The notes below the pieces were generated by a model that searched no databases, was not told the origin of the DNA, and was given only the letters and a program-made list of their open reading frames with translations. A stretch of DNA of 21,904 nt from Psammoneis japonica (taxonomy: Eukaryota), in NCBI GenBank assembly GCA_008632985.1, contig QPGO01000260.1:62001-83904 (forward strand). The letters are read 5' to 3'. The position numbers were made by a program, and so were the translations under genes. Numbering within the stretch: the stretch's first letter is position 1; each line of letters starts with the position of its first letter. Shown here piece after piece: positions 227-21,904 of the stretch.

Positions 227-2358
227 TGAACCCGATTGGGTCCAAAACTGCAATTTTTGACCAGCCTCAAATGAGGGAGGCATGTGTTTCTCACAAGGCA
301 AGCTTTCCCTGGCCTGATGATGAAGTGCTGCTCTTTCTGTCTTTGTGCTGCACCCTTGCAGGCATGTGCATGCTTGGCTCTTGGACAGTTTCTTCACAAA
401 AAGCACACCAGGCAATCACTGGACCACCCTTGTGAAGGTCAAACAGCTCCAAATGGGGCTTTGACAAAGAAACTTGGCAATTGTTGTCAACTTTGCAGTG
501 TTGGTGTTTGGGTTCAAATCATTTCCTTTTTTGGGTTCAAACCTTCAACTTCAACCAACTTGGGTTTTAAACTTGGATTTTGGCCCCAATTGGGTCCAAA
601 ATTGCAGTTTTTGACCTGCCCAGAAAGAGGGAGGCACACGCTTCTCACGAGGCAGCAGGCAATCTGTGCACATTTCCCGCCAGCTTGAGCTGCACTTGAG
701 TGGGCGTGCCACAGTTCTCAGCCCGCTCATTTTCTGCGTGGCCTGGCACAACCCAAATCTGTGCAGGTTCAGCACATTTTGCCCTGTGGAACAGTTTTTG
801 GGAGTGTTTTCTGGGTTGCAACGGACAACAGCATTTTGCCAACTTCAACAGTGCAGTTGTTTCTGAGGCACTTTGTGGTGTGCTCTCAATGGAACATCGC
901 ACGCCACAGCACAAGGTGTGTGACAAGCTCAAGAGTGCACAGGTTCACATGGGCAGCTGATGGCAAAAAATCATGTTGAAGGTTCGTGCTGACAATGTCG
1001 CTTCTGTTGTGTCACAACCAACCTCATGCACTGCCATTCATGCTGTGTGTTTTGTTGAGTTTTTGAATGTTTGGAGCCATTTGACTTGCGTGTGCTTCCC
1101 CTTTCTGCACCGCCCTTTTGTTCTGCAGGCTCTGCATTGTCGTGAGACATCCCAGAGACAGTTTCTCTCATCAAGAATGTCATTTCTGCAGCGCAATGGC
1201 CACGGCAATTCAAGGACAAGGCCAAGTCACAGACACAGCATCAAGAAGAGTTCACAACAAATGCAGCAACTTGGCGCCATGATGTCTTGATCTGAGCAAG
1301 CTCTCAAGAGCTCAAACACATCATCGCACAGTTTTGACAACAGCTCTCCCCGCCTCCACATGGCGATGCAGCTCCAATGGCGCAGACTGCTTCTTTTGGC
1401 TGTGCAGGAACTCTCACCCAGAAATGTGCGACTCATTTGCCCCATTGGTTCACAAGCCAATGCAACAAAATTGGAGAGTGAAGGACGAGACAGATGCGCA
1501 GTTGTGTCAAGTCTTGCAAGCATGTCAAAAGTGCAAGCCAACAAGATTTGTCAGCTTTGCAACTCAGCAAGTGAGTGTTGAGTGCAACCTGTGGGGGCAC
1601 CACGTCTCCATTGTTCTTCCAGAGCAAACAGCAAATGGCATTGATTTGGCTGACACAGCCAACATGCGTGCGTGCCTTGACAGTCTGTGGCGCTGGATTC
1701 TGAGATTGTGGAACAAAAAGAGGCACTTGCACTTGCCTCACTCCATCACATCAGAAATGCACAAGCTTTCCATGGCCCTTTTGGAGCAGCCAGGCAAGCA
1801 AAAGAGGAGCTGTGGAAAGATGCGGAAGACTCCATTTTGATGCATTGTCATCTGGCGGTGTCATCATTTGTGATGAAGTGCCGTGCTTTGTGGCTTTATG
1901 CTGCATCTGTGCAGGAATGCATGTTGTTGGCTCTTGGGCAGCTTCTGTGCAAAAAGTGCACCAGGCGATCTCTGGACTGCCCTCTTGAAGGTCAAATGGC
2001 TCTGAGCAAAGCTTTGACAAAGAAACTTGGCAGTTGTTGTCAATTTTGCAGCGTCAGTGTTTGGGATCAAAATTTTTCCTTTTTGGGTTCAAACTTTCCT
2101 TTTCAACCAGCTTGGGTTGCAAGTTTTGATTCTGAACCCAACTGGGTCCAAAATTGCAGCTTTCGACCCGCCACAAAAAAGGGAGGCACGCACTTCTCAC
2201 AAGGCTGCAGGCAACCTGTGCACATTTCCCATCAGCTTGAATTGCACTCAAGTGGGTGCACCACAGTCCTTGGCCCATTTGTTTTCTGCGTGGCCTGGCA
2301 CAACCCAAATCTGCGCAGATTCAGTGCATTTTGCCCTGCAGAACAGTTCTTGGGAGTG
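227..2358 (-). repeat. Satellite-like ~1.5 kb unit array, inverted orientation
   Basis: Reverse complement of the modules seen downstream. The marker TGGGTCCAAAATTGCAG occurs at ~237, ~591 and ~2143 (period ~1.55 kb). Confidence 0.9.
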
Positions 2359-2619
2359 CCTGGGATGTTGTTGATTGTCAGTTTCTGCAGCGAAAGAGGG
2401 CTCGTGCATTGACAGGATGCAGAGGAGGGTGTTTGATGGCACAGGTGATTTTTCACAGTTGAGAGTTGGGCTTCCTGGCCAAAGTCATTTGTCGTTGACA
2501 GGCAACCAATCATTGCCAGCTGTGAGCTGATGAGGTTTGAAACCACAATTGTTTTGTCTGCAAAAGGAACAAAAAATTACATCAAAAAGGGGTGGTCGAT
2601 CACTGTGATGTGCGCTCTG

Positions 2620-5600
2620 ATGCACGTGCATTCCCACACAGACGCAGTGTGAGACAAGAAAGCACAGCACTTCATCACAAATGATGATGACACCACCAGG
2701 CGACAATGCATCAAAATGGCATCTTCTGCATCTTTTGACAGCTCCTCTGTCACTCACCTGATTGCTCCAAAAGGGCCAGGGAAAGCTTGCACATTTCTGT
2801 TGCAACAGAGCAACGCAAATGCAAGCACTTCTTTTCATTCCAAAATCTCAGAATGCTGCACAACAGATTGTCAAGGTGCGCACACATGTTGGCTGCATCA
2901 GCCAAATCAACACCATTTGCTGTTTGCTCCAGAACGACAATGGAGATGTGGTGCTCCCACAAATTGCACTCAGCGCTTGCTTGCCAAATTGCAAAGCCAG
3001 CGACTCTTGTTGGCTTGCGCTCTTGAGCCGCTTCTGAGACTTGGCACAACTGCACATCATCTGCCTTGTCCTTCACCCTCTAAATTTGTTGCATTGGCTT
3101 GCTGACAAGTGGGGCAAACAAGCCACATGTTTCTGGGTTGCAAGCTGCTGTGCTGCCAAATGAAGTGATCCATGACATTGGAGCTGCCATGATGCGCTGG
3201 TCTTCTGAGTCAAACTCTGCATTGCCATGTGGAGGTGGGGAGGAGAGAGCTGTTGTCAAAACTGTGCGATGATGTGTTTGAGCTCTTGAGAGCTTGCTCA
3301 GCTTAAGACATCACAGCTCTAAGTTGCCGTGTTTGTTGTGAACTCTTCCTGATGCTGTGTCTGTGACTTGGCCTTGTTCTTGAATTGTCGTGGATGTTGC
3401 ACTGCAGAAATGACATTCTTGATGAGAGAAAGTGTCTCTGGGATGTGCTGCAGAAACAGCATTCTTGATGAGAAAAAGTGTCCATGTGGAAAGAGAAATC
3501 ACTGTTCACAACACAGAGCCTGCAGAGCAAAAGAGCAGCCTGGAAAGGGGGAGCACATGCAAGTTAAATGGCTGCAAACAGACAAAGCCCCAACAAAGCA
3601 CACAGCATGTGTGGCAGTGCATGAGGTTGGTTGCAACACAACAAAAGCAGTGTTGTCAATTTGAGCCTTCAGCATGCTTTTTCATTGTCAGCTGCCGATG
3701 CGGGCCTGTGAGCTCTCAAGCTTGTCACATGCCTTGTGCCATGACATGTGATGCTCCATTGAGAGTGCACTGCAAAGCACCTCAGAAACAAAAACATTTT
3801 TGAAGTCAGTGAAATGCCATCGCCCGCGTCATTTTGCACAATGTTTTGCACTGCTCTGCAGGGCAAAATGTGCTGAACCCACACAGATTTCTTGGGCTGC
3901 ACCAGGCCGTGCAAAAAAAGAGCAGGGCAACAGCTGTGGCACACCCACTCAAGCACAACTCAAGCTGACAGAAAATGTGTGCAGGTTGCCTGCCACCTTG
4001 TGAGAAGTGTGTGCCTCCATTTTGGGGGGTGGGTCAAAAACTGCCATTTTGGACCCAACTGGGGCCAAAATCCAAGCTTTGAACCCAAGTTGGTTGAAAT
4101 TGAAAGGTCGAACCCAAAAGAGGAAAAATTTTGATCCTGGACACCAACACTGCAAAATTGACAACAATTGCCAAGCTTCTTTGTCAAAGCTTTGTTTGGA
4201 GCTGTTCGACCTTTGAGAGGGTGGTCCAGAGATTGCCTGGTGTGCTTTTTGTGCAGAAACTGTCTGAGAGCCAAGCACGCATGTTCCTGCAAGGACGCAG
4301 CATGAAACCAGAAAGAACACACTTCATTGTCATGAATGATGACGACACCACCAGACAACAATGTGCCAAAATGGCATTGTCCACATCTTTTGACAGCTCA
4401 TGCCTCTCTTTTTCAGGGCGAGTTGAAAACTGCAATTTTGGACCCAATTGGGTTCAAAATCCAAACCCAAAGCCCAAGTTGGTTAAAATTGAAAGTTTGA
4501 ACCCAAAACAGGAAAATTTTGAAACAGAGCACCAGCGCTGCAAAACCAACAACAGCTGCCACCAGACAACAATGCACCAAAATGGCGTCATCCGCATCTT
4601 TCGATGGCTCCTCTTTTGCTTGCCTGATTGCACCAAAAGGGCCAGGGAAAGCTTGCGCATTTCTGTTGTGACAGACTGATGCAAGCACATGTGCTTCTTT
4701 TCATTGCACAGTCTCAGAATGCAGCACAACAGACTGTCAAGGCATGTGCACACATTGGCTGCATCAGTTGAATCAACGCCATTTGCTGCTTGCTCCAGGA
4801 TGACGATGGAGATGCGATGCCCCCATGAACCACACTCAATGCTCACTTGCCAAATTGCAAAGCTGGCAGTTCTTGTTGGCTTGCACTCTTGAGCTGCTTC
4901 TGAGACTTGACACAGCTGCGCATCTGTCTTGTCCTTCAGCCTCTAAATTTGCTGCATTGGCTCGCCAACAAATGGCGCAAACAAGTCACATTTTTTTGGG
5001 TCACAAACTGCTGCACAGCCAAAAGAAGTGGCCCACATTGTTGGAGCCACCATGACAAGCTGGCAGAGAAAAAAGTGTTCGCCATCAGCCACTCATGTGA
5101 GCCTGTGTGCTCTTGAGCTCATCACATGCCTTGTGCCACAATGTGCAGCACTTCATCAAGAGCACATTGCAAAGCAACTCAGAAACAACCACATTTTTGA
5201 AGTTGGCAAGACCTTGTTGTCCTTGTCACTTTGCATGTTGTCTGGTGTCGCGAGCCAGAAAACACTCCCAAAAACTCTTCTGCAGGGCAAAATGTGCCAA
5301 GCCGGCATGGATTTGGGTTGTGCCAGGCCACGCAGAAAATGAGTGGGCCAAGAACTGCGGCGTGTCTGCTCAAGTGCAGCTGAAACTGACAGGAAATGTG
5401 CGCAGGTCACCTGCCACCTCATGAGAAGCAAGTGCCTTCCTTTTTTGGGGTGGGTTGAAAACTGCAGTTGCGGGCCCAGCTGGGTTCAAAATTCAAATTT
5501 AAAACCCAAGTTGGTTGAAATTGAAAGTTTGAACCCAAAAAAGGAAAAATTTGAACCTGAGCTCTGATGCTGCAAAACCAACAGCAACTGCCAAGTTTCT

Positions 5601-6390
5601 TTGTCAAAGCTTTGTTTTGAGCCATTTGCCCTTTGAGGTGGCGGTGGTCCAGAGATTGCCTGGCATGCTTTTTGCACAGAAACTGCCCAAAAGCCACGCA
5701 CTTCAGAGCTTGCAATGTGGCAGCAATCACTTTCGTTGGTTTTTGCCATGCCGCTGCATTTTGTTTGTGTCATTCATTTGACTGTGATGCCAGCACTTGA
5801 ACATTGTTTTCACAGTGCAAGGTGTTTGACCTTTTCAAGCTTTGGGTTGGGTTGAAAACTGCTGTTTTGGACCCAGCTGGGTTCAAAATTCAAACTTAAA
5901 ACCCAAGTTGGTTGAAATTGAAAGTTTGAGCCCAAAAAGGGAAAAAATTGAACCCGAGCACTGACGCTGCAAAATGAACAACAACTGCCAAGTTTCTTTG
6001 TCAAAGCTTTGTTTGGAGCCATGTGACCTTTGAGGCGGTGGTCCAAAGATTGTCTGGTGTGTCTGCTCAAGTGCAGCTGAAACTGACAGGAAATGTGCAC
6101 AGGTCGCCTGCTGCCTCGTGAGAAGTGTGTGCCTTCCTTTTTCGGGGCGGGTCAAAAACTGCAATTTTGGACCCAACTGGGTTCAAAATTCAAGCTTGAA
6201 ACCCAAGTTGGTTGAAATTGAAAGTTTGAACCCAAAAAAGGAAAAATTTGAACCTGAGCACTGACGCTGCAAAACCCACAGCAGCTGCCAAGTTTCTTTG
6301 TCAAAGCTTTGTTTGAAGCCATTTGACCTTTGAGGCGGTGGTCCAGAGATTGCCCGGCATGCTTTTTGCACAGAAGCTGCCCAAAAGCCA
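2620..6390 (+). repeat. Satellite-like array, forward orientation, with internally deleted units
   Basis: Marker ...AAAACTGCAATTTTGGACCCAACTGGG...AAACCCAAGTTGGTTGAAATTGAAAGTTTGAACCC at ~4035, 4425, 5457, 5855 and 6155. Confidence 0.9.
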
Positions 6391-7172
6391 AGCACATGAG
6401 AGCCTGCAATTTGGCGGCAATCACTTTCATTGATTTTTGCTGCGCCGTTGCATTTTGTTTGTGTCATTCTTTTGACTGTGATGCCAACACTTGAACGTTC
6501 TTTTCATGGCACAAGGTGTTTGACCTTTTCGCACAGATTTTTTTTGCCCATTTGCGTTGGTTGTTCATGCTCAAGCAACTCACATTTGCAAATGCAATGT
6601 GGTCAAAGAAGCTTTTCATGGCGCAAGGTGTTTGACCTTTTGGCGCAGATTTTTTTTGTCCATTTGTGTTGGTTGTTCATGCTCAAGCAACTCACATTTG
6701 CAAGTGTCATGTGGTCAAAGAAGCTTTGGGTCGTGACAACCCATGCTCCATGCCTTTGACAATTTGGCTTTCAAGCTGGTTTGTGCTTTTTTGTTTCACC
6801 CCCTTGTGTGTCACACCACATGCTGCTGCCCATGTCTGCCCAGTCACCTCCATGTGTGCGCACATTTCCTTGTCGCGCCACACTTGTTTCCGGAGCTCTC
6901 TGTTGGTGCGTTTTCTGTGTTCTCAGTGTTTTTTCTGCACATGCCATTTCCTGCACATTTCACAAAAGCACGCCGTCTCCCCAAAATCAATTTGACCAGA
7001 GTGTGGGCTGTTGTGATTCATGCACTTTCTGCATGTTCCGCCAACAGACAACTGGCCATGGTGGCCGGTCAATGACTTTGCCCCACAAGTGGAGGAGGTT
7101 GACCCTGACCCCTCCTTTGTCTTTCCTGATGATGTCAATTTCAACAACACAGAACATCTCACCAATGGCTTC
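6065..7172 (+). repeat. ~1 kb segment duplicated at ~8396-9388
   Basis: Colinear similarity from GCTCAAGTGCAG through CCCCAAAATCAATTTGACCAGAGTGTG to CCAATGGCTTCA in both copies. Confidence 0.85.
6501..6727 (+). repeat. Local tandem duplication, 112-bp period
   Basis: TTTTCATGGC(A/G)CAAGGTGTTTGACCTTTT...GTGGTCAAAGAAGCTTT starts at 6501 and 6613. It is single-copy in the 8.8 kb paralog. Confidence 0.85.
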
Positions 7173-7260
7173 AGAGTGGAGCCATTTGGGCCCAAGTTCA
7201 GGAGCATGATTGCACTGTGTGCATCCAAAAAGCAGTTTGTGGAGAGAACAAATTGGGGTG
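7030..7260 (+). pseudogene. Fragment of a degenerate acidic-protein gene, cut by a MITE copy
   Basis: Protein-like frame FAPQVEEVDPDPSFVFPDDVNFNNTEHLTNGF, paralogous to 9255-9388. Confidence 0.4.
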
Positions 7261-7261
7261 C

Positions 7262-7638
7262 ATGGGCGGGACTCCGTGTGACATCGGGCCTGCAGAGTTC
7301 TGCGTGCGAGCTCTGCAGTGTAAGAATTTAATCAACAGACACATTCATCTTCAACATCAAATGAACAGCCAAGTTTGTGGCACAATTGACCCTCTTGCCA
7401 CTCAACGTTTTTGCAGATGCGCCTGCCCCGTGTGATTCTCAAGACATTGCAGAATCGCACTGCATGACAAAAATGTCAAAAGTTGTTGGATGGATCGCTC
7501 AACAAGTGCACCACAAAATGACACAAAATTTCACAAAAGTCTTGCGCAATTCTGCGTGCACGACATGCTGTGTGATCCAAAAAACCATTGAGGTCACAGT
7601 TCAGTGGAACAAGGTCCCACCTGGAGCTGGGGTGTGTC
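7262..7638 (-). mobile_element. MITE copy, one end truncated, more mutated
   Basis: Reverse complement of ~11433-11808. Ends GGTCCCACCTGGAGCTGGGGTGTGTC, versus GGTCCCACCTGGACCTGGAACGCGTC in the reference copy. Confidence 0.85.
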
Positions 7639-7664
7639 TTGGTCACCCACCCCAGAGTTCCTCG

Positions 7665-8720
7665 AGCTTCCTTTTCTTTGCCAAAATGTCAGAATGCAGC
7701 ACGACAGATTGTCAAGGTGCACGTGCACGTTGGCTGCATCAGCCAAATCAACGCCATTTGCTGTTTGCTCCAGAAGAACAATGGAGACGTGGTGCCCCCA
7801 AAAATTGCACTCAGCACTTGCTTGCCATTTGCAAAGAAGCCAGCGATTCTTGTTGGCTTGCACTCTTGAGCCACTTCTGAGACTTGACACAACTGCACAT
7901 CATTTGTCTTGTCCTTCACCCTCTAAATTTGTTGTGCTGGCTTGCTGACAAGTGGGGCAAACAAGTCACATGTTTCTGGGTTGCAAGCTGCTGTGCAGCC
8001 AAACAGAATGATCCACACCATTGAAGCCACCATGATGCACTGGTCTGCTGAGTCAAACTCTGCATTGCCATGTGGAGGTGGGAAGAGCTGTTGTCAAAAC
8101 TGTGCAATGATGTGTTTGAGCTCTTGAGAGCTTGCTCAGTTTGAGACATCACAGCACCAAGCCGCCGCATTTGTTTTTGAATTGTCGTGGCCATTGCACA
8201 GCAGAAATGACACTCTTGACAAGAAAAAGAGTCTCTGGGACACCGCGCGACAACGCAGAGCCTGCAGAACAAAAGAGCAATGTGAAAAGGGAAAGCACGT
8301 GCAAGCTGAGTTGCTGCAAACACACAAAGCCTCAACAAAATACACAGCATGAATGGCAGTGCATGAGGTCAGTCACAAAGCAACAGAAGTGATGTTGCTC
8401 AAGTGCAGTTGAAGCTGACTCAATGTGTGAGCAGGTCACCTGCCACCTCATGAGAAGTGCAGGCCCCCCCTTTTTGGGGGCAGGTCAAAAACTGCAATTT
8501 TGGACCCAATTGGGTTCAAAAGTCAAACTCAAAACCCGCGTTGGTCAAAATTGAAAGTTTGAGCCCAAAAAAGGAAAAATTTGAACCTGAGCACTTGTGC
8601 TGCGAAATCAACAACAACTGCCAAGATTCTTTGTCAAAGCTTTGTTTGGAGCCATTTGACATTTGAGGTGGCAGTCCAGAGATTGCCTGGCATGCTTTTT
8701 GCGCAGAAGCTGCCCAAAAG
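7665..8720 (+). repeat. Satellite-like unit (partial)
   Basis: Same modules, e.g. CAGAATGCAGCACGACAGATTGTCAAGG and GAGCTCTTGAGAGCTTG; marker at ~8485. Confidence 0.85.
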
Positions 8721-9254
8721 CCAAGCACATCAGAGCCCACAATGTGGCGGCCATCACTTTCATTGGCTTTTGCCGCGCAGCTGCATTTTGTTGGTGTCAT
8801 TCTTTTGATTGTGGCGCCAGTGCTTGAATGTTGTTTTCACAATGCAAGGTGTTTGACCTTTTCATGAGGATTTTATTTTGCCCATTTGTGCTGATTGCCC
8901 ATGCTCAAGCAACTCACATTTGCAAATGTTTTGTGACCAAAGCTTTGGGTGGTGACAACCCATGCTCCATGCCTTTGACAATTTGGCTTTTGTGTTGGTT
9001 TGTGCTTTTTTGTTTTTGCCCCCCTCATGTGTCACAGCACACAATGCTGTCCACATCTGCCCAGTCACCTCTGTGTGTGCACACATTTCCTTGTTGCTTC
9101 GCACCTTTTTCCAGAACTCTGTGACAGTTTCTCTGCTGTGTTCTCAGTCTTTTTTCTGCATGCACCATTTCCTGCACATTTCTCAACAGCACACCCTCTC
9201 CCCAAAATCAATTTGACCAGAGTGTGCGATGTTGTGATTCGCTCACTTTCTGCA

Positions 9255-10090
9255 TGTTCCACGCAAACAGATGGCTGGCCACAGTGATCAACGTGCCCCA
9301 TCAGCGGAGGAGGCCAACCCCAACCCCTCCTTTGTCTTTCCTGATGATGTCAATTTTGATGACACAGAACATTTCGCCAATGGCTTCAATGGTTGAGTTT
9401 GTGCATCAGATCATTGCCGGTGAGGACCTCAATGACCCTGTCTCCGGCAAGCCTTGTTTCCATTTTTTTAAGTGCAAAAATCTCAAATCTCTGATTGACG
9501 ACTGAGCACAGGACCTTCGTGCTACAAAATTTGTTGTCAAAACAGCCGTGCGTCCCATGTGGAGAAGGGTGGTGGAGTCGGGCAACACAAAGGTCATGGA
9601 GCTGGCCATGGCAAGCAACAAGGCACTGGCGCTGTTGGCATTGGAAAATTGCTGGAAGGTTTGGGAGCACAAATCCAAGCTGGAGGGAAAGGAAGAAGAG
9701 AGTGAAGAGGAGGAGAAGGAAACAAAACTGGCGCCCTTGCACACAGACCCACTGCATCAGCGCGACTCTTGGAAGGATGGCGGAATGAAGCAATTCACTG
9801 CCCTGCTTGAGGAGTTGAAGGATGACAGGGCAAGTGAGCCGGGTGTGCAGCTCGACACATGGCACGCTGATGGAAAGAAAAAGGAGAGTGAGGGAAATGA
9901 AAAAAGAGCCAAACCACTGAAAAGCCAGCGGGGGTGGAGATGAGAATGCAAGCAACAACAGAGCTTTCTGGTGACAATGAGGACCATGAAGAGAAAACGG
10001 ATGAACCAAGCAACAGAGGCAACAAGGAAGAAGATGAAGACAGCAAAGAAGACAACAATGACAAAGAACATGTGCAGACTGCAGTGCAGG
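9255..10090 (+). pseudogene. Degenerate gene for an unknown, probably transposon-associated protein with an acidic tail
   Basis: Purine-rich coding-like frames: ...ELAMASNKALALLALENCWKVWEH...EEESEEEEKE...PLHTD...SWKDGGMKQFTALLEELKDDR..., then D/E-rich DNEDHEEKTDE...EEDEDSKED. Contains stops and frameshifts. Confidence 0.55.
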
Positions 10091-10154
10091 CCTGTTGCAA
10101 CTTAAAAAATGCCAGACAACAGAGCATCAATTTGGCACTCATTGATGCACCATG

Positions 10155-10394
10155 GATGCATTCCAGCCCCAGGTGGGGCTCTGTGTTCTGCAGTGCTAGA
10201 AGTTGGTCAATGGATGCACCCATCTTCAACATCAAACAAACGGCCAAGTTTGTGGTGAAATTGTGCCTCTTGCCACTCGACGTTTTTGCAAGTGCACCTG
10301 CCCTGCACGACTCTCAAGACATTGCAGAATTGCGCTGAAACAAAAAATGTCAAGAGTTGTTGGAAGGATTGCTCAACAAGTGCACTGCAAAATG
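10155..10394 (-). mobile_element. MITE half-copy
   Basis: Starts GATGCATTCCAGCCCCAGGTGGGG (TIR). Reverse complement of ~11551-11822 with a small internal deletion. Confidence 0.8.
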
Positions 10395-10743
10395 GGACCT
10401 CGCGCTGCTGAACTGTGACAACGACAGTTTTTGAATCATGTTGCATGTCAGGCACGTGGATTTCCACATGATTTTGGCGACATGTTGTGTCATTTTACAG
10501 TGCACTTGTTGAGTGATCTGTCTGACAACTTTTGACATTCTGCAATGTCTTGAGAACTGCACAGGACAGGCACATTTGCAAAAACGTCAAGTGGCAAAAG
10601 GTGCAATTGTGCCACAAACTTGGCCATTTGTTTGATGTTGAAGACAAGCGCATCCATCAATTAAATTCTCACACTGCAGAGCTCGCACACAGAGCTCCAT
10701 GGCCCAACATCACATGGAGTCCCGCCCAGGGCTGGAGCGCATC
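10395..10743 (+). mobile_element. MITE copy lacking its left TIR
   Basis: Colinear with ~11454-11822. Ends GGAGTCCCGCCCAGGGCTGGAGCGCATC. Confidence 0.85.
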
Positions 10744-11332
10744 TGCATGAGGTTGGCTGCAACACAGCAAAAGTGATGTTGTCAATGTGAACCTTCAGCA
10801 TGCTTTTTCACCATCAGCCACCCATGTGAGCCTGTGTGCTCTCAAGCTTGTCACATGCCCTGTGCCACGACGTGTGATGTTCCATTGAAAGTGCACTGCA
10901 GAGCACCTCAGAAACAACCGCATTTTTGAAATCGGCAAAACACCATTGTCCATGTCATTTTGCGTGTTGTTTTGCATCACAGCTCAGAAAGCACTCACAA
11001 AAACCACTCTGCAGGGCAAAATGTGCTGAGTTCACACAGATTTGGGCTGTGCCAGGCTGCACAGAAAATGAGCGGACCAAGAGCTGTGGCACACCCACTC
11101 AAGCACAGTTCAATCTGACAGGAAATGTGCGCAGGTCGCCTGCCACCTTGTGAGAAGTGTGTGCCTCCCTTTTTTGGGGTGGGTCAAAAATTGCAATTTT
11201 CAACCCAGCTGGGTTCAAAATCCAAGCTTTAAACCCAAGTTGGTTGAAATTGACAGGTTGAGCCCAAAAAAGGAAATGATTCAAACCCGAACACTGATGC
11301 TGCAAAATTGACAACAACAGCCGAGTTTCTTT
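10744..11332 (+). repeat. Satellite-like unit interrupted by the solo LTR
   Basis: Runs to ...CCGAGTTTCTTT. The unit continues at 12605 as CTTTGTCAAAGCTTTG. Confidence 0.9.
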
Positions 11333-11432
11333 TGCAGCGTGCCTCTCCACTGGACAGCACGGCAAGACTGTGCACAAGCCTCTTGTGCGTGGCAACGCAG
11401 CATTGCGTGGCTCCAGGTCTCAGGCAATTCCA

Positions 11433-11822
11433 GACGCGTTCCAGGTCCAGGTGGGACCTCGCACTGCTGAACTGTGACATCGACAGTTTTTTGAGTCTCA
11501 TCGTATGTCGCGCACGTAGATTTCTACGTGATTTTTTCGACATTTTGTGTCATTTTACGGTGCATTTGTTGAGCGATCCGTCCAACAACTTTTGACATTT
11601 TTTGTTGCAGCGCGATTCTACAATGTCTTGAGAATCGCGCAGGGCAGGCGAAGTTGCAAAAACGTCGAGTGGTGAGAGGCATAATTGCACCACAAACTTG
11701 GGCGCTCATTTGATGTTGAAGACAAGCACATCCATCAATTAAATTCTCGCACTGCGGAGCTCGCACGTAGAATTCTACGGGCCCAATGTCACACGGAGTC
11801 CCACCCAGGGCTGGAATGCGTC
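11433..11822 (+). mobile_element. 390-bp MITE with ~25-bp imperfect TIRs and 4-bp TSD
   Basis: Left end GACGCGTTCCAGGTCCAGGTGGGAC, right end GTCCCACCCAGGGCTGGAATGCGTC. TSD TCCA at 11429-11432 and 11823-11826. Empty site with a single TGGA at 17715-17718. Confidence 0.9.
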
Positions 11823-11906
11823 TCCAGAAGGATGCCAAGAGAGCATCCGTGTGAAGCACACTGGCCCGTCGTCTGGCCCACGATGGCAGCGTGATTCCAC
11901 ATGATG

Positions 11907-12383
11907 TGCAGCATGCATGCAGACAAAAGGTCATTTTTGTCACGACCTTTGTGACATTTAAATTGCAGCACATCGCCGTGATGCATTGGCTCTCATTGGC
12001 AGCTGTGTGCTGCACTCCTCCCCATGTGTCACGCGTCCATGTGGCTCTTTGCTGACGTGCACTGACACTGTGCGGTTTTGGCGGAACAGTGTGGGTGCGT
12101 GCGAAGAAACATGCAGAACTGCACAGAGTTTTGCACGTTCGACAGTGATCAACGTTGCTGCAGACAACTCCCACTCAGGGTTTCGAACCCCTGGCCTCCT
12201 GCCCAATGGTCGCACATTGAACCACTCCGCTGTGAATTCACAGTGCAGCATGCATGCAGACAAAAACAATCACAATGCAGCATGCATGCAGACAAAAGGT
12301 CATTTTTGTCACGACCTTTGTGACGTTTAAATTGCAACACGTCGCCGTGATGCATTGACTCTCATCAGCAGCTGTGTGCTGCA
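11907..12383 (-). mobile_element. TRIM-like non-autonomous mini LTR element (108-bp LTRs)
   Basis: Direct repeats 11907-12014 and 12276-12383 (TG...CA, 6 differences, all transitions). TSD GATG at 11903-11906 and 12384-12387. PPT GGGGAGGAG on the minus strand at 12015-12023. Empty site at ~17635-17638. Confidence 0.88.
12168..12238 (-). other. tRNA-like segment with Pol III A box and B box inside the TRIM
   Basis: Minus strand: CAGCGGAGTGG (A-box-like, 12232-12222) and GGTTCGAAACC (B box, 12189-12179) inside a CAGGG...CCCTG stem, 43 nt apart. The anticodon arm is not convincing. Confidence 0.55.
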
Positions 12384-12604
12384 GATGACATCACTCGTGC
12401 ACAGCGCGTGATGGCTTGATTCGCGCGATCCACAATGCGAGCGCACAATCGATTTGACACGATCCAAATGCGAACAAACAGGGATTTGGCAAGATTCCCT
12501 GTTCGCATGATCCCACTTTCTCTGCTCTAAACCAGCTCACAATTTTCACAACGACAAAGTCGCAACACATCTTCTTTTGCAGCGCCTGGTGCATGCACAG
12601 GGCA

Positions 12605-15600
12605 CTTTGTCAAAGCTTTGTTTGGAGCTGTTTGACCTTCAAGAAAGCAGCCCAGAGATCACCTGGTGCGCTTTTTGTGTGGAGACCATCCAAGAGCCAA
12701 GCACGCACATTCCCACACAGATGCAGTGCAAAGCCAGAAAGCGCGGAACTTCATCATGAATGATGTCGACACCACCAGATGACAATGCATCAAAATGATG
12801 TTGCCCACATCTTTCGAAAGCTCCTCTTTCACTTGCCCTCTTTTGCTCACCCGATTGCTCCAAAAGGGCCAGAGAAAGCTGACACATTTCTTTCATGATG
12901 GAGCAATGCAAGCGCAAGCACTTCTTTTCATTCCACAATCTCAGAATGCAGCACAACAGATTGTCAAGGCACGCATGCACGCTGGCTGCATCAGCCAAAT
13001 CAGCACCATTTGCTGTTTGCTCTGGGGCAACAATGGAGATGTGATGCCCCCACAAGTTGTGCTCAACACTCACTTGCTGAGTTGCAAAGCTGACAGCTCT
13101 TGTTCACTTGCCCCTTTGAGCTGCTTGTGAGACTTGACACAACTGCACATCTTTCTTGTCCTTTGCTCTCCAAATTTGTTGCATTGGCTTGCTGACAAAT
13201 GGGGCAAATGAGCCACACATTTCTGGTTTCTGGGTTGTCAGTTGCTGCACAGCCAAAAGAAGCAATCTGCGCCACTGGAGCTGCCATGGTGTGCTGGTCT
13301 GCTGTGTCAAACTCTGCATTGCCACGTGTGGGTGGGGAGAGCTGTTGTCAAAACTGTGCAATGATGTGCTTGAGCTCTTGAGAGCTTGCCCAGCTCAAGA
13401 CATCACAATGGCGCCAAGTTGCCATGTTTGTTGTGAACTCTTTGCAATGCCGCGTCTGTGACTTGGCCTTGTTCTTGAATTGTCGTGGATGCTGCGCTGA
13501 AAAAAGAACATTCTCGATGAGAGAGAGTGTCTCTGGGATGCCTCGCGAGAGGTTGGTTGTGACAAAACAGAAGTGACATTGTCAGTGCAAACCTTGACAT
13601 GATTTTTCACCATTGGCTGCCCGTGCAAACCTGTGTGCTCTCAAGCTTGTCACACGCCCAATGCCGCAGCATGTGATGCTCCATTGAGAGCACACCACAA
13701 AGTGCCTCAGAAACAACTGCATTTTGGAAGTTGGCAAAACACCGCTGTCCATGTCATTTTGTGTGTTGTTTTGCATCACGGCCCAGAAAACACTCTCAAA
13801 AACTGCTCAGAAGGGCAAAATGTGCTGAGTTCACACAGAAATGGACTGCACCAGGCCACAAAGAAAATGAGCGCACCAAGAGATGTGGCACACACACTCA
13901 AGCGCAGCTCAATCTGACAGGAAATTTGCACAGGTCGCCTGCCACCTTGTGAGAAGTGTGTGCCTCCCTTTTTGGGGGGGGGGGGGCAAAAGTTGCAATT
14001 TTGGACCCAACTGGGTTCAAAATTCAAGCTTTAAACCCAAGTTGGTTAAAATTGACAGGTTGAACCCAAAAAAGGAAAAATTTCAAACCCAAACACCGAC
14101 ACTGCAAAACTGACAACACCAGACAAGTTGCTTTGTCAAAGCTTTGTTTGGGGCTGTTTGACCTTCAAGAAAGCAGTCAAGAGATGACCTGGTGCACTTT
14201 TTGTGTGGAGAACATCCAAAAGCCAAGCACGCACATTCCCGCACAGATGCAGTGCAAAGCCAGAAAGCATGGAACTTCATCATAAATGATGTCAACACCG
14301 CCAGATGACAATGCATCAAAATGATGTTGCCCATGTCTTTTGACAGCTCCTCTTGCACTTGCCTTCTTTCACTTGCCCGATTGCTCCAAAAGTGCCAGGG
14401 AGAGCTGACACATTTCTGTCATGATGGAGCAATGCAAGCGCAAGCACTTCTTTTCATTCCACAATCTCAGAATGCAGCACAACAGATTGTCAAGGTGCGC
14501 ACGCACTGCAACTTTGGACCCAGTTGGGTTCAAAATCCAAACTCAAAACCCAAGTTGGTTAAAATTGAAAGTTTGAACCCAAAAAAGGAAAAAATTCGAA
14601 CCTGAGCACCGACACTGCAAAATTGACAACAACTGCCAAGTTTCTTTGTCAAAGCTGTGTTCAGAGCCATGTGACCCTTGAGAGGGTGGTCCAGAGATTG
14701 CCCCCCGTGCACTTTTTGCACAGAAGCTGCCCCAGAGCCAACACTGTGCATTCCTGCACAGATGCGACATGAAGCCAGAAAGCACAGCACTTCATCATGA
14801 ATGATGACACCACCAGACAACAATGCATCAAAACGGCGTCTTCCACATCTTTCAACAGCTCCTCTTTTGCTTGCCCAACTGCTGAAACAAGGGCCAGGGA
14901 AAGCTTGTGCATTTCTTTTGTGATGGAGTGATGCAAGTGCAAGTGCCTCCTTTTGTTCCACAATCTCAGAATGCAGCACAACAGACTGTCAAGGCACACG
15001 CGCACATTGGCTGTGTCAGCCAAATCAATGCCATTTGCTGTTTGCTCTGGAGCAACAATGGAGGCGTGATGCCCCCACAAGTTTCACTCAGCACTCACTT
15101 GCTGAGTTGCAAAGCTGACAACTCTTGTTGGCTTGCACTCTTGAGCTGCTTGTGAGACTTGACACAACTGTGCATCTGTCTTGCCCCTCACTCTCCAAAT
15201 TTGTTGCATTGGCTTGCTGACAAATGGGGCCATTTGGTCACACATTCCTGGGTTGTGAGTTGCTGCACAGCCAAAAGAAGCAGTCTGCGCCATTGGAGCT
15301 GTCACAATTGTCAAAACTGTGCGATGATGTGCTTGAGCTCTTGAGAGCTTGTTCAGCTCAAGACATCATGGCGACAAGTCACCATGTTTGTTGTGAACTC
15401 TTCCTGATGCTGTGTTTGTGAGTTGGCCTTGTTCTTGAATTGTCACGGCCATTGCACTGCAGAGATGACATTCTTGATGAGAGAAAGTGTCTCTGGGATG
15501 CCTCGTGAGAGGTTGGTCATGACAAAACAAAAGCAACATTGTCAGTGCAAACCTTCAACACACAATTTTTCACCATCAGCGGCCCATGCAAACCTGTGCA

Positions 15601-17329
15601 CTCTCAAGCTTGTGACACACCTTGTGCCGCAATGTGTGATGTTCTGTTGTGAGCACACCACAAAGTGCCTCAGAAACAACTGCATTTTTGAAGCTGGTGA
15701 AATGCCGTTGTCCATGTCATTTTGCAAGTTGTTTTGCATTGCAACCCAGAAAGCACTCCCAAAAACTGTTCCACAGGACAAAATGTGCAGGGAGCAACCA
15801 CAAAAAACAAATGGGCCAAGAACTGTGGCACGCCCACTCAAGTGCAGCTCAAGCTGATGGGAAATGTGTTCAGGTTGCCTGCCGCCTCGTGAGAAGTGCA
15901 TGCTTCCTTTCTTTGGGGTGGGTCAAAAGTTGCAATTTTGGACCCAACTGGGGCCAAAATCCAAACTTAAAACCCGAGTTGGTCAAAGTTAAAAGTTTGA
16001 GCCCAAAAATGGAAAAATTTTGAACCCAAACACCAGCACAGCAAAGTTGACAACAACTGCCAAGTTTCTTTGTCAAAGCTTTGTTTGGAGCTGTTTGACC
16101 TTCAAGAGGGTGGTCCAGAGATTGCCTGGTGTGCTTTTTGCACAGAAGCTGTCCAAGAGCCAAGCACGTGCATTCCTGCAAGGACACAGCATGAAACCAG
16201 AAAGAACGGCACTTCATCATCACGAATGATGATGAAACCACCAGACGACAATGCGCCAAAATGGCATTGTCTGCATCTTTTGACAGCTCCTCTTTTGCTC
16301 ACCTCACTGCTCTGAAAAGGACGTGGAAAGCTCACCTTTTGAGAAGCACGTGCCTCCCTTTTTTTGGGCTGGTCAAAAATTGCAATTTTAGACCCAGATG
16401 GTTCAAAATCCAAATTTAAAACCCAAGTTGGTTGAAATTGAAAGTTTGAACCCAAAAAAGGGAAAAAATTGAGCCCGAACACTGGCGTTGCAAAACCAAC
16501 AACAACTGCTGAGTTTCTTTGTCAAAGCTTTGTTTGGAGCCATTTGACCTTTGAGAGGGTGGTTCAGAGATTGCCCGGCACACTTTTTGTGCAGAAACCA
16601 CCCCCAAGAGCCAAGCATGCACATTCCCACACAGACACAGCACAAAGCAAGAAAGGGCTGCTCTTCATCATGAATGATGATGACACCACCAGACAACAAC
16701 ACACCAAAATGGCATCATCTGCATCGTTTGATGGCTCCTGTTTCACTTGCCCGATTGCCTCAAAAGGACCAGGGAAAGCTCGTGCATTTCTGTCAAGGCA
16801 CGTGCATCCACTGGCTGCATCAGCCAAACCAACGCCATTTGCTGCTTGTTTCAGGACAACGATGGAGACACAATGCACCCATGAGCCGCGCTCAATGCTC
16901 GCTTGCCAAATTGCAAAACTGGCAGCTCTTGGTGGCTTGCACTCTTGAGCTGTTTTTGAGACTTGACACAACTGTGCATCTGTCTTGTCCTTCACCCTCT
17001 AAATTTGTTGCATTGGCTTGCCAACAAGTGGGGCAAACAAGTCAAATTTTTTGGGTCACAGACTGCCGCACAGCCAAAAAAAGTGGTCTGTGCCATTGGA
17101 GCCGCCATGATGCGCTGGTCATGAACGATGTCTTTGGGATGCCCCACAATGATGCAGAGCCTGCAGAATGAAAGCACAACATAGAAAGAGAAAGCACATG
17201 CAAGCCAGACAGTTTTGAAACACACAGCCTGAATGTCAGTGCATGAGGTCAGTCGAAACGCAACAGAAGCAACGTTGTCAATGCAAACCTTTAACATGAT
17301 CTTTCACCATGAGCCACCCATGTGAGCCT
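12605..17329 (+). repeat. Satellite-like array: about two long units plus short deleted units
   Basis: CTTTGTCAAAGC at 12605, 14131, ~14644, ~16069 and ~16517. The module order is conserved. Confidence 0.9.
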
Positions 17330-17417
17330 GGGCAAGTGAGCAGGATGTGCAGCTTGACACATGGCACTCCAGCGCAAAGAAAAAGGAGAGTGAAGGAAAA
17401 GGGAAAAAGGGCCAAAC
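17330..17417 (+). pseudogene. Short copy of the 9.8-9.9 kb gene relic; insertion target of the Gypsy
   Basis: GGGCAAGTGAGC...GACACATGGCAC...AAAGAAAAAGGAGAGTGA...GCCAAAC matches ~9828-9915. Confidence 0.8.
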
Positions 17418-17849
17418 TGCCCTGTGCATGTGCCAGGCGCTGAAAAAGAAGATGTGTTGCGACTTTGTCGTTGTGAAAATTGTGAGCCAGTTTAGAGTGG
17501 AAAAAGTGGGATCGTGCGAATGGGGAATCTTGCCAAATCCCTGTTTGTTCACATTTGGATCGCATCAAATCGATCATGCATTTGCATTGTGCATCGTGCG
17601 AATCAAGCCATCACGCGCCATGCACGAGTGATGTCATCGTGTGGAATCACACCACCATCGTGGGCCAGACGACGGGCTGGTGTGCTTCACACGGATGCTC
17701 TCTTGGCGTCCTTCTGGAATTGCCTGAGGCCCAGAGCCACGCCCTCCTGTGGTCATGCTTCCCAGGTGCGTGTCAACAATGCCACGTTGCCATGCACAAG
17801 AGGCTCATGCACGGTCTCGCCGTGTTGTCCAGCAGCGAGGCATGCTGCA
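17418..17849 (-). repeat. 3' LTR (432 bp)
   Basis: Begins TGCAGCATG right after the PPT and ends ...CAGGGCA. Both ends coincide with the TSD-defined solo LTR. Confidence 0.9.
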
Positions 17850-17860
17850 CACTCCCCCAT
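17850..17860 (-). promoter_or_regulatory. Polypurine tract
   Basis: ATGGGGGAGTG between the integrase stop (17889) and the LTR. Confidence 0.85.
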
Positions 17861-17888
17861 GATCAGGGCCGTCAAGTGACAGGATGTC

Positions 17889-18890
17889 TCACTGGTGACA
17901 GGGTGCAATCTGCCGTAGATTGCACGTGTCTGTCAGCACTCCATTCTGGACATGCAACGTGCCGTTGTCACACACACGGACAACTCTGGCGGGTCCTGCA
18001 CAGCTGTCAGAACCGCACTTAGAGGATTGTTCCTGTTTGATGAGTGCCAATTGCCCTGCGGTGCATTGATGCTCCTTGCGTTTCTGATTTTCACGCTTGT
18101 TGTTTAAGTGGACAAGCTTCTGCTTTCTGGTTTCTATGTGCTTCCACTTGGCACGATGGGCAACAGATGAAACCGCATCGCGTCCGAAGACCAATTGCAT
18201 GGGACTTGCACGTGTGGCCGTGTGTGCCGTAGCTCCAATGGCGAAGGCCACTGCGGAGAGGATGCCACTCCATGGGTCATCTTCATCCAGTTCCACATCC
18301 TGCACTGAAAAGGAGCGCACCATGTTGCCAAGTGTCTGGTGCACACATTCCACTGTGGCATTCGCCTGTGGATTCCGTTTGCTTGTGGGTTTCTTCAAAA
18401 TCCCACAGTCATTTTTAATCATCTGGCTAAATTCTGCCATAAATTCTGTCCCACGGTCATAAACCACCTGGGTTGGCCACGGACATCTGCACAGCCACGT
18501 TTGTTCTACGACGTTTGCTGCGATGTCTGCACGTTTCGCAGACACTTCTTTGATCTCGAACCACCCGGTTGCTGGGTCAATCATTGTGACCGCCCACAAT
18601 TGCAAAGTGTCCTTTCCGTGTCTTTGAATTTTATGTGGCCTTGTCATGTCTGTGCATGGAGTCTCCCATGGAATCATCTTGGCGACCTTTTCTGGCAGCT
18701 TCCCACAATGCTGCGTTCGGCGTTTTGTCTTCTGACATCGATCGCACTTGATGCACGTAGAATGCACCGTAGACCTCATGCCAGGCCAGCAGAAGTGCTG
18801 GGCAACAGACATTTCCGTGCGTGTCTCACCTGGATGACACAGTGTCTCGTGGCACCATTCAGTTGGCGGAACCTGCAATGACTGTGGCAC
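17889..18890 (-). pseudogene. pol: Integrase domain of pol (HHCC + DDE), mutated
   Basis: HETLCHPG...FCWPGM...CDRCQ; IDPATGWFE; YDRGTEF; NPQANATVECVHQT; SPMQLVFGRD. Confidence 0.95.
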
Positions 18891-18920
18891 TGCGATTTTG
18901 TCCTTATGACAGATTGACTG

Positions 18921-20807
18921 TCATGATGACCCTCCCCCACGATGCGCACGAATGGAGCAGTCGGACGAGTCCTCAGCTCGTGAGAGCAGGCACTTGTCCT
19001 TTTGTTGTTCTTTTTGAATGTGCTTGAAGCTGACAGGCAGAGATGCGTCGTCTTGCGCGTCTGCATTAAAAGCTTCATGCAAAGGACGACTCGATGGAGT
19101 GTCTTTTACATCCGGATTAGCCTCGGAAGGCAAGCTGGGTGCCAGTCGAAGGCGACTGAGAGCGTCAGCGACTGGGTCATGGGTGCCCTTGACACAGCGT
19201 AATTCGGGACCGCATTCTTCGCATGTCAACCGCCAGCGCATGACGCGCTCGGTGTTGAATGCTTTGTGAGCAAGATTTTTATGATCAGCACACACAATCA
19301 CACGATGACCCAGGAGAATCGTTCAAAATTCTTTCAACATCTCCACAATGGCAAGCAACTCTCTCTCCATTGTTGCACAATTTAATTGCGTGCTGTTGAG
19401 CTTTCTGCTGTGAAAGGTGATGGGTTTGTTGTCTTGGGACACAACTGCTCCCAATTGACATTTAGAGGCATCGGTGTGTGTCTCAAAGGGTTCATTAAAA
19501 TCAGGATGTGACAACAAAACATCATCCGACATCACCTGTTTGACGGTTTCGAACGCCTCGTCTTCAACGGACGTCCACTCCCATTTGACAGTCTCGCTTG
19601 CGAGTCGTGTTGGCGGAGCCAAGACTTCAGAACGTCCAATCCACGTGTCGCGGCAGCAGTTCACCACACCAACAAATGACCGCAGGTCGCGTTTGTTGGT
19701 TGGGGTTGCGATTCGCTCAATGGCGTCGACTTCATTGGGTGTTGGTCGCATTCCGTCTCTGTTGACCAGATGACCCAAGCACTCCAATTGGGTTTGACAG
19801 AAGTGAGATTTGGCTGCGTTGACTTTTAGTCCTGCTTTCTGGACCCTCAACAAAACTTCTTCAAGTTTGTTGAGGTGATCTTCACAGGTGCCTTTCGTCA
19901 CGACGAGAAGGTCATCCAAGTGTGTTCGAACGAACGACAGATCTTCAAATGAGCCTGACATGCGTTCTTGGAAAATGTCTGGCGAGTTGCATGACCCCAT
20001 GGGCAATGCCTGCATCTCATGCTTGCCCCACGGGAAGATGAGCGTGCAGAGCTTCTTGCTGTCAGCATCCAATCGGATGTGACAACAGCCCATGTTTAAA
20101 TCCAGTGATGTGGCCCACACAAAGCCTTCGAGCTTGAGGAGCACATCTTGGATGTGAGGAATCGGATGAGGCAATCGCTTGATCCGTTTATTCAGCTCTC
20201 TGAAATCATTGACAAAGTGTGCCATTAAGTCTTTCTTCGGCATGACAAATGATGGAGCTGCCCATTGGGATCGGTTGACGCGTTTGAGAACACCGATGCG
20301 CACCAGGCGTTCTACTTCTTTACGCAGCGCAGCTTCGTACGCACGAGGTGCTTCACACGGACGAGCGTGATGTGGTTCTGCACCCTCCTTGAGTTGGACA
20401 TGGCAGGGTTCTCCCTTCCATTCTCCTGATGTCCCATCAAACAAGGACTCATGGCGTTTCAACAGTGCCAAAAGGTCGTTTTGTTGAACCACAGAAAGTT
20501 CTGTTGCCCCTCGCGTTATGTCCGCGAGGCATGCCGGCGCGTGTTTGGCGTCTGAGATGCGCGAAATCCGGTCGGTTTCCGAAGATGAGGCTTCTGGATC
20601 TTGAAGATAGAAGGAGGTTTCTACCGCAGCATCTGCGTGCCTCATTGGCACTTCTCCATTGACTGGTGGCCACTCTGTCATCTGTTTAGAGAAGACAACA
20701 TCAATGCCTTGTGTCTCCAGAATGTCACGTCCAATGATCACATCGCACTTGCCCAACTTTCCGTTGTGTGCGTGGACGGCATGTTTAAGTTCTGCAGTTT
20801 CGGACAA
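18921..20807 (-). pseudogene. pol: Protease C-terminus, reverse transcriptase and RNase H of pol, mutated
   Basis: CDVIIGRDIL; DFRELNKR; LDLNMGCCHI; HLDD at 19911-19922 (from YLDD); HTDASK; ERELLAIVE; in-frame TGA at 19323-19325 (probably from CGA); DHKNL; VADALSR. Confidence 0.96.
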
Positions 20808-21100
20808 TTCTGGTAACCGAAATTTAACGGTGCAGTCGTTGGACGCACTGAACGAGCCTGCTGCCGCAGTCCAGTTGTCTCAGCCATTGAATGGCTTCGC
20901 AGACGCTTGCAGCATTGACTGTCGAGCAGAGCACTGCTGGCGCCACTGTCTGGCAGTGCCTTGATGGTTTGAGTCTTGCCCTTGCCATGTTTGGCATTCA
21001 CAGCTGCAAACAAGATTGGAGCAAGATGAGTCTTTTTAACTCGCTTGCGGGATTGGCCCACAACACGTGTGCGATGGCAGCCCAGTTCATCCAATGCATT
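20808..21100 (-). pseudogene. pol: Aspartic protease N-terminal part (frameshifted)
   Basis: IKALPDSGASS, with DSG at 20942-20950. Confidence 0.85.
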
Positions 21101-21143
21101 AAAGCTGCCTGCATCGTGTCGGCAAGTGTCTGAATCTTCGGAA

Positions 21144-21904
21144 TCACTTGAGTTGAGGTCGCGGAAGTGATTGAGCTCCTCCTCGCGTGCCTTGCGCTTT
21201 TTCTGAGCGTTGGCAAAGAACTTCTCGACCTTCGGGTCCGATGAGAGCATCAATGTCTTCCTCATTCCGAGGTTTTGCATTGGGCTTGCTGCCTCCGTTG
21301 TTGGAATGTCCAGTCTTGACACATTTCACGTGGTGCTTGAGCTGACGGCAATCCTCCGTATGATGTCCACAGTTGGTCCCGTGCAGCATGCACGACTTCT
21401 GGGTGTTTGGTTGGGTCGTGATCAACGACTCAGGATTGTCCGTTCTACGTTCCCACTTGCGTGGAACCTCAGCATGTTGGTCCAGGTTACCTTCGGCAAG
21501 CTCGACCTGCTCGATGCGCTCGCAGAACTGTGCAAATTTGGTGACAGTGTGCGCCAACGAGTCAAAATTCTGTAACGTCATGAACTTCTGCCATGCGTTC
21601 GGCACACCGCACTCGAACATGTCGCACAGTTCGTCATTGGGTGATGGTGCCGGTGCTTCTCCATCCTGCGTCACGGGTGGAAACTGAGAGATGCAGCCGT
21701 TAATTTCAACAGCCCTCGCGACACAGTCATGAGCAGAAACCTCTGCGGGCTTGCGCATGAAGCGCCTCAGATGACGCTTCTGCAATGGCACCGCCCTGTG
21801 TGGGAAGACACTTTCCTTTAGCTTCGCGATGCATGCTGCGCACGCAGCGTTGGTTTCGGATGCCTGCGTGTCAGCGGCATTGTTGAATGACGTCAGAGCA
21901 TCGC
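21144..21904 (-). pseudogene. gag: gag-like region, partial
   Basis: Lies upstream of the protease. Motifs QKRHLRRFMRKP and FCERIE, and a Cys/His knuckle CMLHGTNCGHHTEDC (21348-21392). Frameshift near 21.24 kb. Confidence 0.8.

Follow-up and report, generated by a model that had tools for sequence, protein, structure and literature searches.

Fungal repeat-induced point mutation (RIP) changes C to T at CpA and creates TpA. Changes with the opposite outcome characterise the DNA described here, a stretch of 21,904 nucleotides (nt) from Psammoneis japonica (GenBank assembly GCA_008632985.1, contig QPGO01000260.1, positions 62,001 to 83,904 of the forward strand; this whole stretch is called the window), in which a Ty3/Gypsy long terminal repeat (LTR) retrotransposon at the right-hand end (17889..21904) adjoins older, nested repeats. 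As in RIP, repeats have been inactivated by dense, one-directional transitions in a dinucleotide context and on both strands. The direction is reversed, however: TpA is destroyed and CpA and TpG are made (observed/expected ratios, o/e, of 0.06, 1.71 and 1.74, respectively), which is the opposite of what RIP produces and leads us to reject RIP for the window.

The closest described counterpart is the TpA-specific hypermutation of integrated DNA of nucleocytoplasmic large DNA viruses (NCLDV) and virophages in the marine alga Bigelowiella natans (Mettrop et al., bioRxiv 2026, 10.64898/2026.01.13.699255). In mutation-accumulation lines of this species the mutation rate of two integrated viral regions is about 1000-fold that of the remaining genome; 230 of the 231 mutations in these regions are A>G or T>C, and these GC-biased mutations all fall on TpA. 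The preprint also reports 324 predicted coding sequences with a mean TpA frequency of 0.0018, which are enriched in reverse-transcriptase and DDE domains. Its authors propose an ADAT2-like adenine deaminase as the candidate enzyme and a function in genome defence. A full-text literature search returned this preprint as the only match for the TpA>TpG/CpA signature. The first-pass annotation of the window, made from the letters alone, had known of no natural pathway of this kind, a statement that the preprint has overtaken.

What the window displays is a process of this kind that has run to saturation on a retrotransposon and on old repeats. Its changes are A:T>G:C transitions from an ancestral TA, which as in B. 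natans occur only at TpA and give TpG or CpA according to the strand, and the loss of TpA is coupled to the gain of CpA plus TpG. The two cases differ in their substrate, which in the window is an LTR retrotransposon with nested old repeats, and in the extent of the loss, which here approaches saturation (TpA o/e 0.04-0.19, compared with 0.45 in the NCLDV region of B. natans). Furthermore, CpG decay runs alongside in the window, and TTAA is resistant. The words Gypsy, LTR and retrotransposon are absent from the preprint text.

Other described systems share single features with this locus. Deamination of 5-methylcytosine (5mC) likewise makes TpG and CpA, and is a second process here (CG o/e 0.39 in the old repeats), but it is unable to remove TpA or to turn Tyr into His or Cys. 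The direction from TpA to TpG and CpA thus supports the earlier view that neither RIP nor 5mC decay explains the loss of TA. ADAR and APOBEC enzymes disable retroelements by deaminase-driven, clustered and one-directional transitions, and ADAR prefers a 5' U; they act on one RNA or cDNA strand per replication cycle and leave strand-coordinated clusters, whereas the pattern in the window interleaves both strands with a strict 5' T in copies that decay in place. In dinoflagellates, 5-hydroxymethyluracil (5hmU) is enriched on repeats of Amphidinium carterae, and in Crypthecodinium cohnii it preferentially replaces T in TA and TC (PNAS 2024, PMC11572971). It resembles the process in the window as a repeat-directed modification with a preference for TA. 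It differs as a silencing mark that is not known to be mutagenic, and as one that prefers TC too, which has left no signature in the window.

Loss of TpA in the window and in the Gypsy coding region

Only 91 TA dinucleotides remain in the window, while 200 mononucleotide shuffles of it gave a mean of 1,438 (standard deviation 27.6, minimum 1,348). The rarity of TA throughout, already remarked upon in the first-pass annotation, is therefore stronger than reported. The deficits of TA (1,346) and CG (673; CG o/e 0.48) add up to 2,019 and are matched by a combined excess of CA and TG of 1,983. The o/e values of TC (0.89) and CC (0.84) show no TC>CC signature. The coordinates given for the signature in the annotation are those of the Gypsy part, 17889-21904, where it is indeed present (44 TA, o/e 0.19; CG o/e 0.85). 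As a description of its extent these coordinates do not hold, as depletion spans the whole window and is deeper outside this part than inside (47 TA at positions 1-17888, o/e 0.04; CG o/e 0.39).

One consequence concerns reading frames. The window retains 48 TAA and 17 TAG trinucleotides, 65 in total, compared with 542 TGA, and since TAA and TAG are almost gone, 113 stop-to-stop open reading frames (ORFs) of at least 90 amino acids (aa) extend across all six frames. Gene callers applied to such DNA would give spurious Tyr-free proteins, and products of this sort have already entered public databases.

The top over-represented tetranucleotide of the window is TGCA (355 observed, 85 expected), with CACA and TGTG close behind at about three times expectation. 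This excess fits the residue expected from former TATA or (TA)n sequences resolved to TG and CA.

The ancestral state can be read from the Gypsy pol gene, which we aligned with 50 full-length relatives (P0121-P0170), all of them exceeding the 2% Tyr required by a filter. A column counted as conserved if its consensus reached 80% (n=462). None of the 23 conserved Tyr columns retains Tyr in the window copy: 15 are now Cys (TGY) and 8 are His (CAY), and the two outcomes are interleaved along pol. Control columns are kept almost throughout (Pro 31/31, Asp 22/22, Gln 14/14, His 10/10, Cys 6/6, Trp 18/19, Phe 20/22). The remaining changes at TA-containing codons follow the same rule, with six Leu>Ser (all TCA), two Leu>Pro (CCA), three Ile>Thr (ACA), two Ile>Met (ATG) and three Val>Ala (GCA). 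Since Tyr and the other TA-codon columns have changed to TG and CA codons, TA is the ancestral state and TG or CA the derived one. A weaker general drift from A to G is also seen in pol (Ile>Val 6, Thr>Ala 7, Lys>Arg 3), which may reflect a higher G+C content of the window genome relative to its relatives.

The Tyr counts per ORF given earlier (2/494, 1/333, 0/126 and 0/215) are reproduced by our own, to which the protease-frame ORF adds 1/194. Likewise, the twelve motifs quoted in support of ancestral TA all occur on the minus strand with the codons quoted (HLDD, GCCH, LECLG, NCCRD, HPDF, FHSRKL, LPDSG, GTSGE, MGSCN, LAPPT, ANATVE and FVMPKK). The polarity and the action on both strands that had been deduced from them are supported by the conserved columns and, at the DNA level, by a marine-metagenome copy described below.

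Independent change of copies and metagenomic counterparts

The flank of the Gypsy part (positions 1-17888) allows comparison among copies, as paralogs within the window cover 15,127 of its 17,888 positions. Between these paralogs TG stands opposite CA in 1,202 double differences, compared with 152 for the mirror control GT<->AC, which has the same bases in reverse order. We rejected these doubles as pure evidence of ancestral TA, since CpG decay makes the same pairs. Sites with at least three paralogs and both TG and CA present (n=1,192) were split by the dinucleotide surviving in other copies: CG survives at 542, TA at 44, both at one and neither at 605. In the control set, neither possible ancestor is left at just 6 of 335 sites. 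Given that CG survives at 39% and TA at 4%, former TA is the best interpretation of the 605 sites.

The two LTR-like copies of the window differ by 31 events, comprising 12 TG<->CA doubles, 12 changes between CG and TG or CA, and seven others. Opposite double CpG decay should be rare (we estimate less than one case from the 12 single CpG events), so that the 12 doubles represent former TA resolved differently in the two copies. Different TG and CA outcomes imply that the mutated state was not inherited from a mutated master element; the changes arose separately in each copy.

The extent of loss follows the age of the sequence, from the young LTR through the Gypsy body to the old repeats. TA o/e falls from 0.36 in the youngest LTR core (CG 1.27) to 0.19 in the Gypsy element (CG 0.85) and 0.04 in the old repeats (CG 0.39), and in bins of 500 nt TA and CG o/e are correlated (Spearman rho 0.50, P=6e-4). 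In the Gypsy element 81% of TA but 15% of CpG has been lost, and by log survival the loss of TA is about 10 times that of CpG. The context of the survivors is uneven: 33 of the 91 remaining TA lie in TTAA (21 of 47 in the flank, 12 of 44 in the Gypsy part), and no ATAT survives in the window.

The same signature occurs in unrelated Gypsy families from the environment. We surveyed Tyr in 388 Gypsy pol proteins, comprising 240 relatives from a word index and 148 cluster representatives. Among the 240, with a median of 3.84%, P0115 (0.86%) and P0109 (1.28%) are Tyr-poor, and among the 148 cluster representatives P0245 and P0305 are Tyr-free. All four come from public metagenome-derived databases. 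At conserved Tyr columns they show His or Cys, the pattern varying from protein to protein, and they mostly retain their Phe and Asp columns, P0305 least so. P0245 was considered as a member of the family of the window element and rejected: its overall identity is 53%, and the agreement of its His/Cys pattern at 8 of 11 informative Tyr columns does not exceed chance expectation.

P0109 led to a case that can be followed in DNA. Compared with the intact protein of the metagenomic locus L002, which has 26 Tyr, it keeps 7 Tyr and has 14 Cys and 3 His. Among 77 loci found with P0109 as a query of metagenome contigs, only one, L011, is clearly poor in TA (o/e 0.29), and the remaining loci have TA o/e values of 0.59-1.18. 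Its intact siblings L001 and L002 differ from one another at 2 of 1,108 positions, and the intact, near-identical copies of this family have TA o/e values of 0.84-0.87. L011 has 95 private differences from these siblings, 54 of which are TA>CA (34) or TA>TG (20). Thirty-four of its 39 T>C changes lie before A, and 20 of its 23 A>G changes lie after T. It keeps 16 of 75 TA sites, 34 having become CA, 20 TG and none CG. Retention of TA (0.21) contrasts with 0.68-0.96 for the other 15 dinucleotides, the lowest of which overlap TA sites, and CG is retained at 0.90. The order of CA and TG outcomes along L011 does not depart from random interleaving (24 runs, shuffle P=0.30). Together with the interleaved Cys and His codons of the window pol, this speaks against strand-coordinated A>G clusters of the ADAR type. 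These metagenomic cases suggest that the process is not limited to one species.

Other Gypsy loci in the same material show the reverse combination. Ten of them (L012, L013, L039, L040, L044, L048, L054, L056, L071 and L074) have a CG o/e of 0.02-0.23 and a TA o/e of 0.62-0.83; such heavy CpG decay with near-normal TA implies that TpA loss and CpG decay are separable. A contig of 10.6 kilobases (kb), L005, contains two intact copies (2310-3397 and 7429-8516), each 82.7% identical to L011, and has a normal TA o/e of 0.82. Two copies on the same contig need not go with TA loss, although this tandem may have been produced by the assembly.

Proposed nature and target of the process

We interpret the window as the product of a host process that turns TpA into TpG or CpA in chromosomal copies of repeated or foreign DNA, a reading to which we assign a probability of about 0.65. 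Such a process would cause A:T>G:C changes with a strict requirement for a 5' T; it would strike the two strands at random and greatly outpace CpG decay. Its action would have cost the old repeats about 96% of their TA and the younger Gypsy insertion about 81%, and would thereby have destroyed all conserved Tyr codons, including that of the catalytic Tyr of YxDD, along with TTA, CTA, ATA and GTA codons. Ordinary CpG decay of the 5mC type would have proceeded in parallel and fed the same pool of TG and CA. Action on DNA in situ is the best fit, given changes on both strands, interleaved outcomes, independent divergence of copies, a loss that increases with age, and the mutations of B. natans, which likewise arise in situ (10.64898/2026.01.13.699255). 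The target is probably repeats rather than the whole genome.

The chemistry would be either deamination of adenine to hypoxanthine by an ADAT2- or TadA-like enzyme, or oxidation of T at TpA to a base that pairs with G. TA being palindromic, the sequence does not separate A>G from T>C. Of the mutator postulated in the first-pass annotation, acting from A to G or from T to C, the TA-specific direction is well founded, while an adenine deaminase as its agent is a plausible candidate.

Several observations weigh against this reading. The window consists of repeats throughout and holds no single-copy or genic contrast from this organism, and the Gypsy element, to which the first-pass annotation had drawn attention, is the least depleted part relative to its surroundings (o/e 0.19 versus 0.04). 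A slow, time-dependent decay of all non-coding DNA fits the gradient equally well. CpG decay also yields TG<->CA doubles, so that TA accounts for part of that signal. The metagenomic comparison has its own difficulties. The context of surviving TA differs, as L011 has kept none of four TTAA but 13 of 30 CTAx sites, whereas survivors in the window favour TTAA; the rules of context may vary from host to host, and the agents at work in the two may not be identical. In addition, L011 and the intact siblings were recovered in separate metagenome assemblies, and their hosts may differ. Finally, the public sequencing run that supports the window (X1) may be the data from which it was assembled, and hence would not be independent support.

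Some of these points would be accommodated by a genome-wide, untargeted TpA bias, caused for instance by bulk base modification or a repair defect and displayed by the repeats as unconstrained sequence. All 21.9 kb are depleted, older sequence more so, and the window offers no contrast region. We nevertheless consider such a bias unlikely, since the metagenomic family has intact, near-identical copies beside mutated ones and the process in B. natans is regional (10.64898/2026.01.13.699255). Loose ends of same-sample contigs on LTR- or Gypsy-like pieces point weakly in the same direction, with ordinary TA (2-3 per 30 nt) in three of the ten listed. ADAR-like A-to-I hyperediting of retroelement transcripts, fixed through reverse transcription, would place the change in RNA. 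It is generally known, and mentioned in the Discussion of the preprint, that ADAR favours a 5' U and that retroelements have an RNA stage. This account appears very improbable in view of changes on both strands with outcomes randomly interleaved within one copy (34 T>C and 20 A>G in L011; 15 Cys and 8 His in pol), of a strict 5' T with 79-96% of sites converted, well past one round of editing, and of an in-situ decay that grows with age; moreover, an integrated DNA virus mutates in place in B. natans (10.64898/2026.01.13.699255).

A rival chemistry within the same picture is a TET/JBP-type modification of thymine (5hmU or 5-formyluracil) at TpA in silenced repeats, which would mispair with G and lead to T>C. 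The occurrence of 5hmU on repeats of A. carterae and its preference for TA and TC in C. cohnii (PMC11572971) agree with it, and the palindromic TA makes T>C and A>G indistinguishable. The missing TC>CC signature disagrees, and 5hmU is not known to be mutagenic at such a rate. A search for the dinoflagellate spliced-leader relic gave no match at up to three mismatches, a weak argument given that 22 kb of repeats are a poor sample. Overall we hold this chemistry to be distinctly improbable. A sequencing or assembly artefact, such as a modified base miscalled at TA, is barely credible. Strand-wise miscalling at a palindromic site would indeed give an extreme, dinucleotide-specific pattern on two strands. 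On the other hand, 0.49 of the 31-mers sampled from the window are present in X1, and this run includes contigs that show 0-1 differences from the window in 317-329 nt, with a word depth of 55-61. The same signature recurs in unrelated public metagenome assemblies and proteins, and in the preprint it appears in Illumina data, in mutations not yet present at T0 (10.64898/2026.01.13.699255).

If the host process acting on TpA is accepted, a broader proposition can be formulated, which we advance tentatively and judge to fall somewhat short of an even chance. It is a widespread 'reverse-RIP' defence of marine eukaryotes, in which a DNA mutator acting strictly at 5'-T-A, either a natural chromosomal adenine deaminase or a mutagenic thymine oxidation, is aimed at silenced repeats and integrated foreign DNA on either strand and to saturation. 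Its carriers would include the organism of the window, B. natans and the hosts of four or more further metagenomic Gypsy lineages, with TTAA as the sole poor substrate in the window. If true, this would set a second kind of mutational genome defence, opposite in chemical direction, alongside RIP and APOBEC, and would be a possible source of natural DNA adenine editors. To our knowledge, DNA adenine editors exist so far only as evolved TadA variants.

Architecture of the window

The Gypsy element lies on the minus strand. Its pol region (17889..20879) encodes reverse transcriptase (RT), RNase H and integrase (IN) in one frame with two internal TGA stops, as recognised by Pfam and tblastn. Matches to RVT_1, RT_RNaseH_2, RT_RNaseH and Integrase_H2C2 are above the Pfam cut-off, and rve is below it (22.8 versus 32.6 bits). 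In tblastn, residues 100-1096 of P0121 align to 20873-17892 in frame -3 with 58% identity, and residues 32-125, the protease (PR), align to 21073-20762 in frame -1. The protease-region ORF (20738..21325, minus strand) is thus in another frame than RT and carries the LPDSG motif at 20942-20956. As intact relatives have PR to IN within one ORF, this implies a PR/RT frameshift in the window copy. The window pol is otherwise collinear with P0121 and P0126, and its domain order PR-RT-RNase H-IN is that of Ty3/Gypsy. With HLDD in place of YxDD, the two internal TGA stops and the frameshift, the copy does not look functional. An ORF running off the window end (21144..21904, minus strand; 0 Tyr in 215 aa) is probably gag-like, judging from its position; Pfam gave no match for it. 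Downstream of IN, the probable 3' LTR of the element (17413..17888, minus strand) is suggested by its homology to 11333-12609.

The closest relatives of the window pol in two protein searches have at most 61% identity and are nearly all metagenome proteins. The few relatives with a named source look like contaminants in bacterial records or bear generic labels. No relatives were found among the viral contigs and genome contigs searched.

The remainder of the window is dominated by an old repeat family with a unit of about 2 kb, which self-BLAST reveals in nested, inverted and tandem copies (144 pairs, 69-92% identity). It occupies 1..11332, where TA is near zero (o/e 0.00-0.06 per kb) and CpG strongly decayed (0.22-0.45 per kb), and where the summed paralog depth in X1 is at least 7 times the single-copy depth. 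Further copies of the family lie at 12610..17412 (TA o/e 0.00-0.07 per kb), including a direct tandem pair at 12605-14354 and 14644-16294. A separate tandem repeat at 6500-6727 has a unit of 112 nt in 2.0 copies with 93% matches. None of the 101 flank ORFs of at least 90 aa gave a Pfam match above cut-off, the nearest being a weak match to FXa_inhibition (E 0.0066); one flank ORF searched against proteins had no match, and Rfam and ARAGORN called nothing in the window.

X1 contains 12,530 contigs with at least 80% identity on the 20-kb stretch, which implies that the repeat families of this region are high-copy. No RNA dataset was listed among those that share 31-mers with the window, which speaks neither for nor against expression. 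Among the 40 best-supported differences between X1 and the window are five adjacent TG<->CA doubles, two changes from TA to CA or TG, one from TG to TA, and eight that involve CpG. The runs X2 and X3 cover 4 and 2 of 30 bins, respectively, and differ from the window by G>A or C>T at 50 places and by A>G or T>C at 21. This excess could reflect copies that are less TA-mutated or copies that are more CpG-decayed.

A younger, very high-copy LTR-like element lies at 11333..12609 on the plus strand. Read in inverted orientation, it shares homology with the sequence that follows IN, with the pairs 17413-17638/12609-12384 (89%), 17635-17718/11906-11823 (92%) and 17777-17849/11405-11333 (84%), and is probably an LTR belonging to the same Gypsy family, either solo or a second one. 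The summed depth in X1 peaks here, at 129,301, and rises again to 31,916 in the bin 17246-17912. The youngest core compared above, at 11430-11800, belongs to this element and is the least decayed piece of the window.

Two minor features lie within the LTR-like element. At about 12150-12230 on the minus strand, a piece resembles the T-arm and acceptor of a tRNA (GGTTCGAAACC-like), which is possibly an insertion of the short interspersed element type; neither ARAGORN nor Rfam called it. The element also contains an internal duplication of about 65 nt, at 11900-11965 and 12245-12335 (GCAGCATGCATGCAGACAAAAGG...TTTAAATTGCA), in which TTTAAA, a rare surviving TA context, is retained in both copies.

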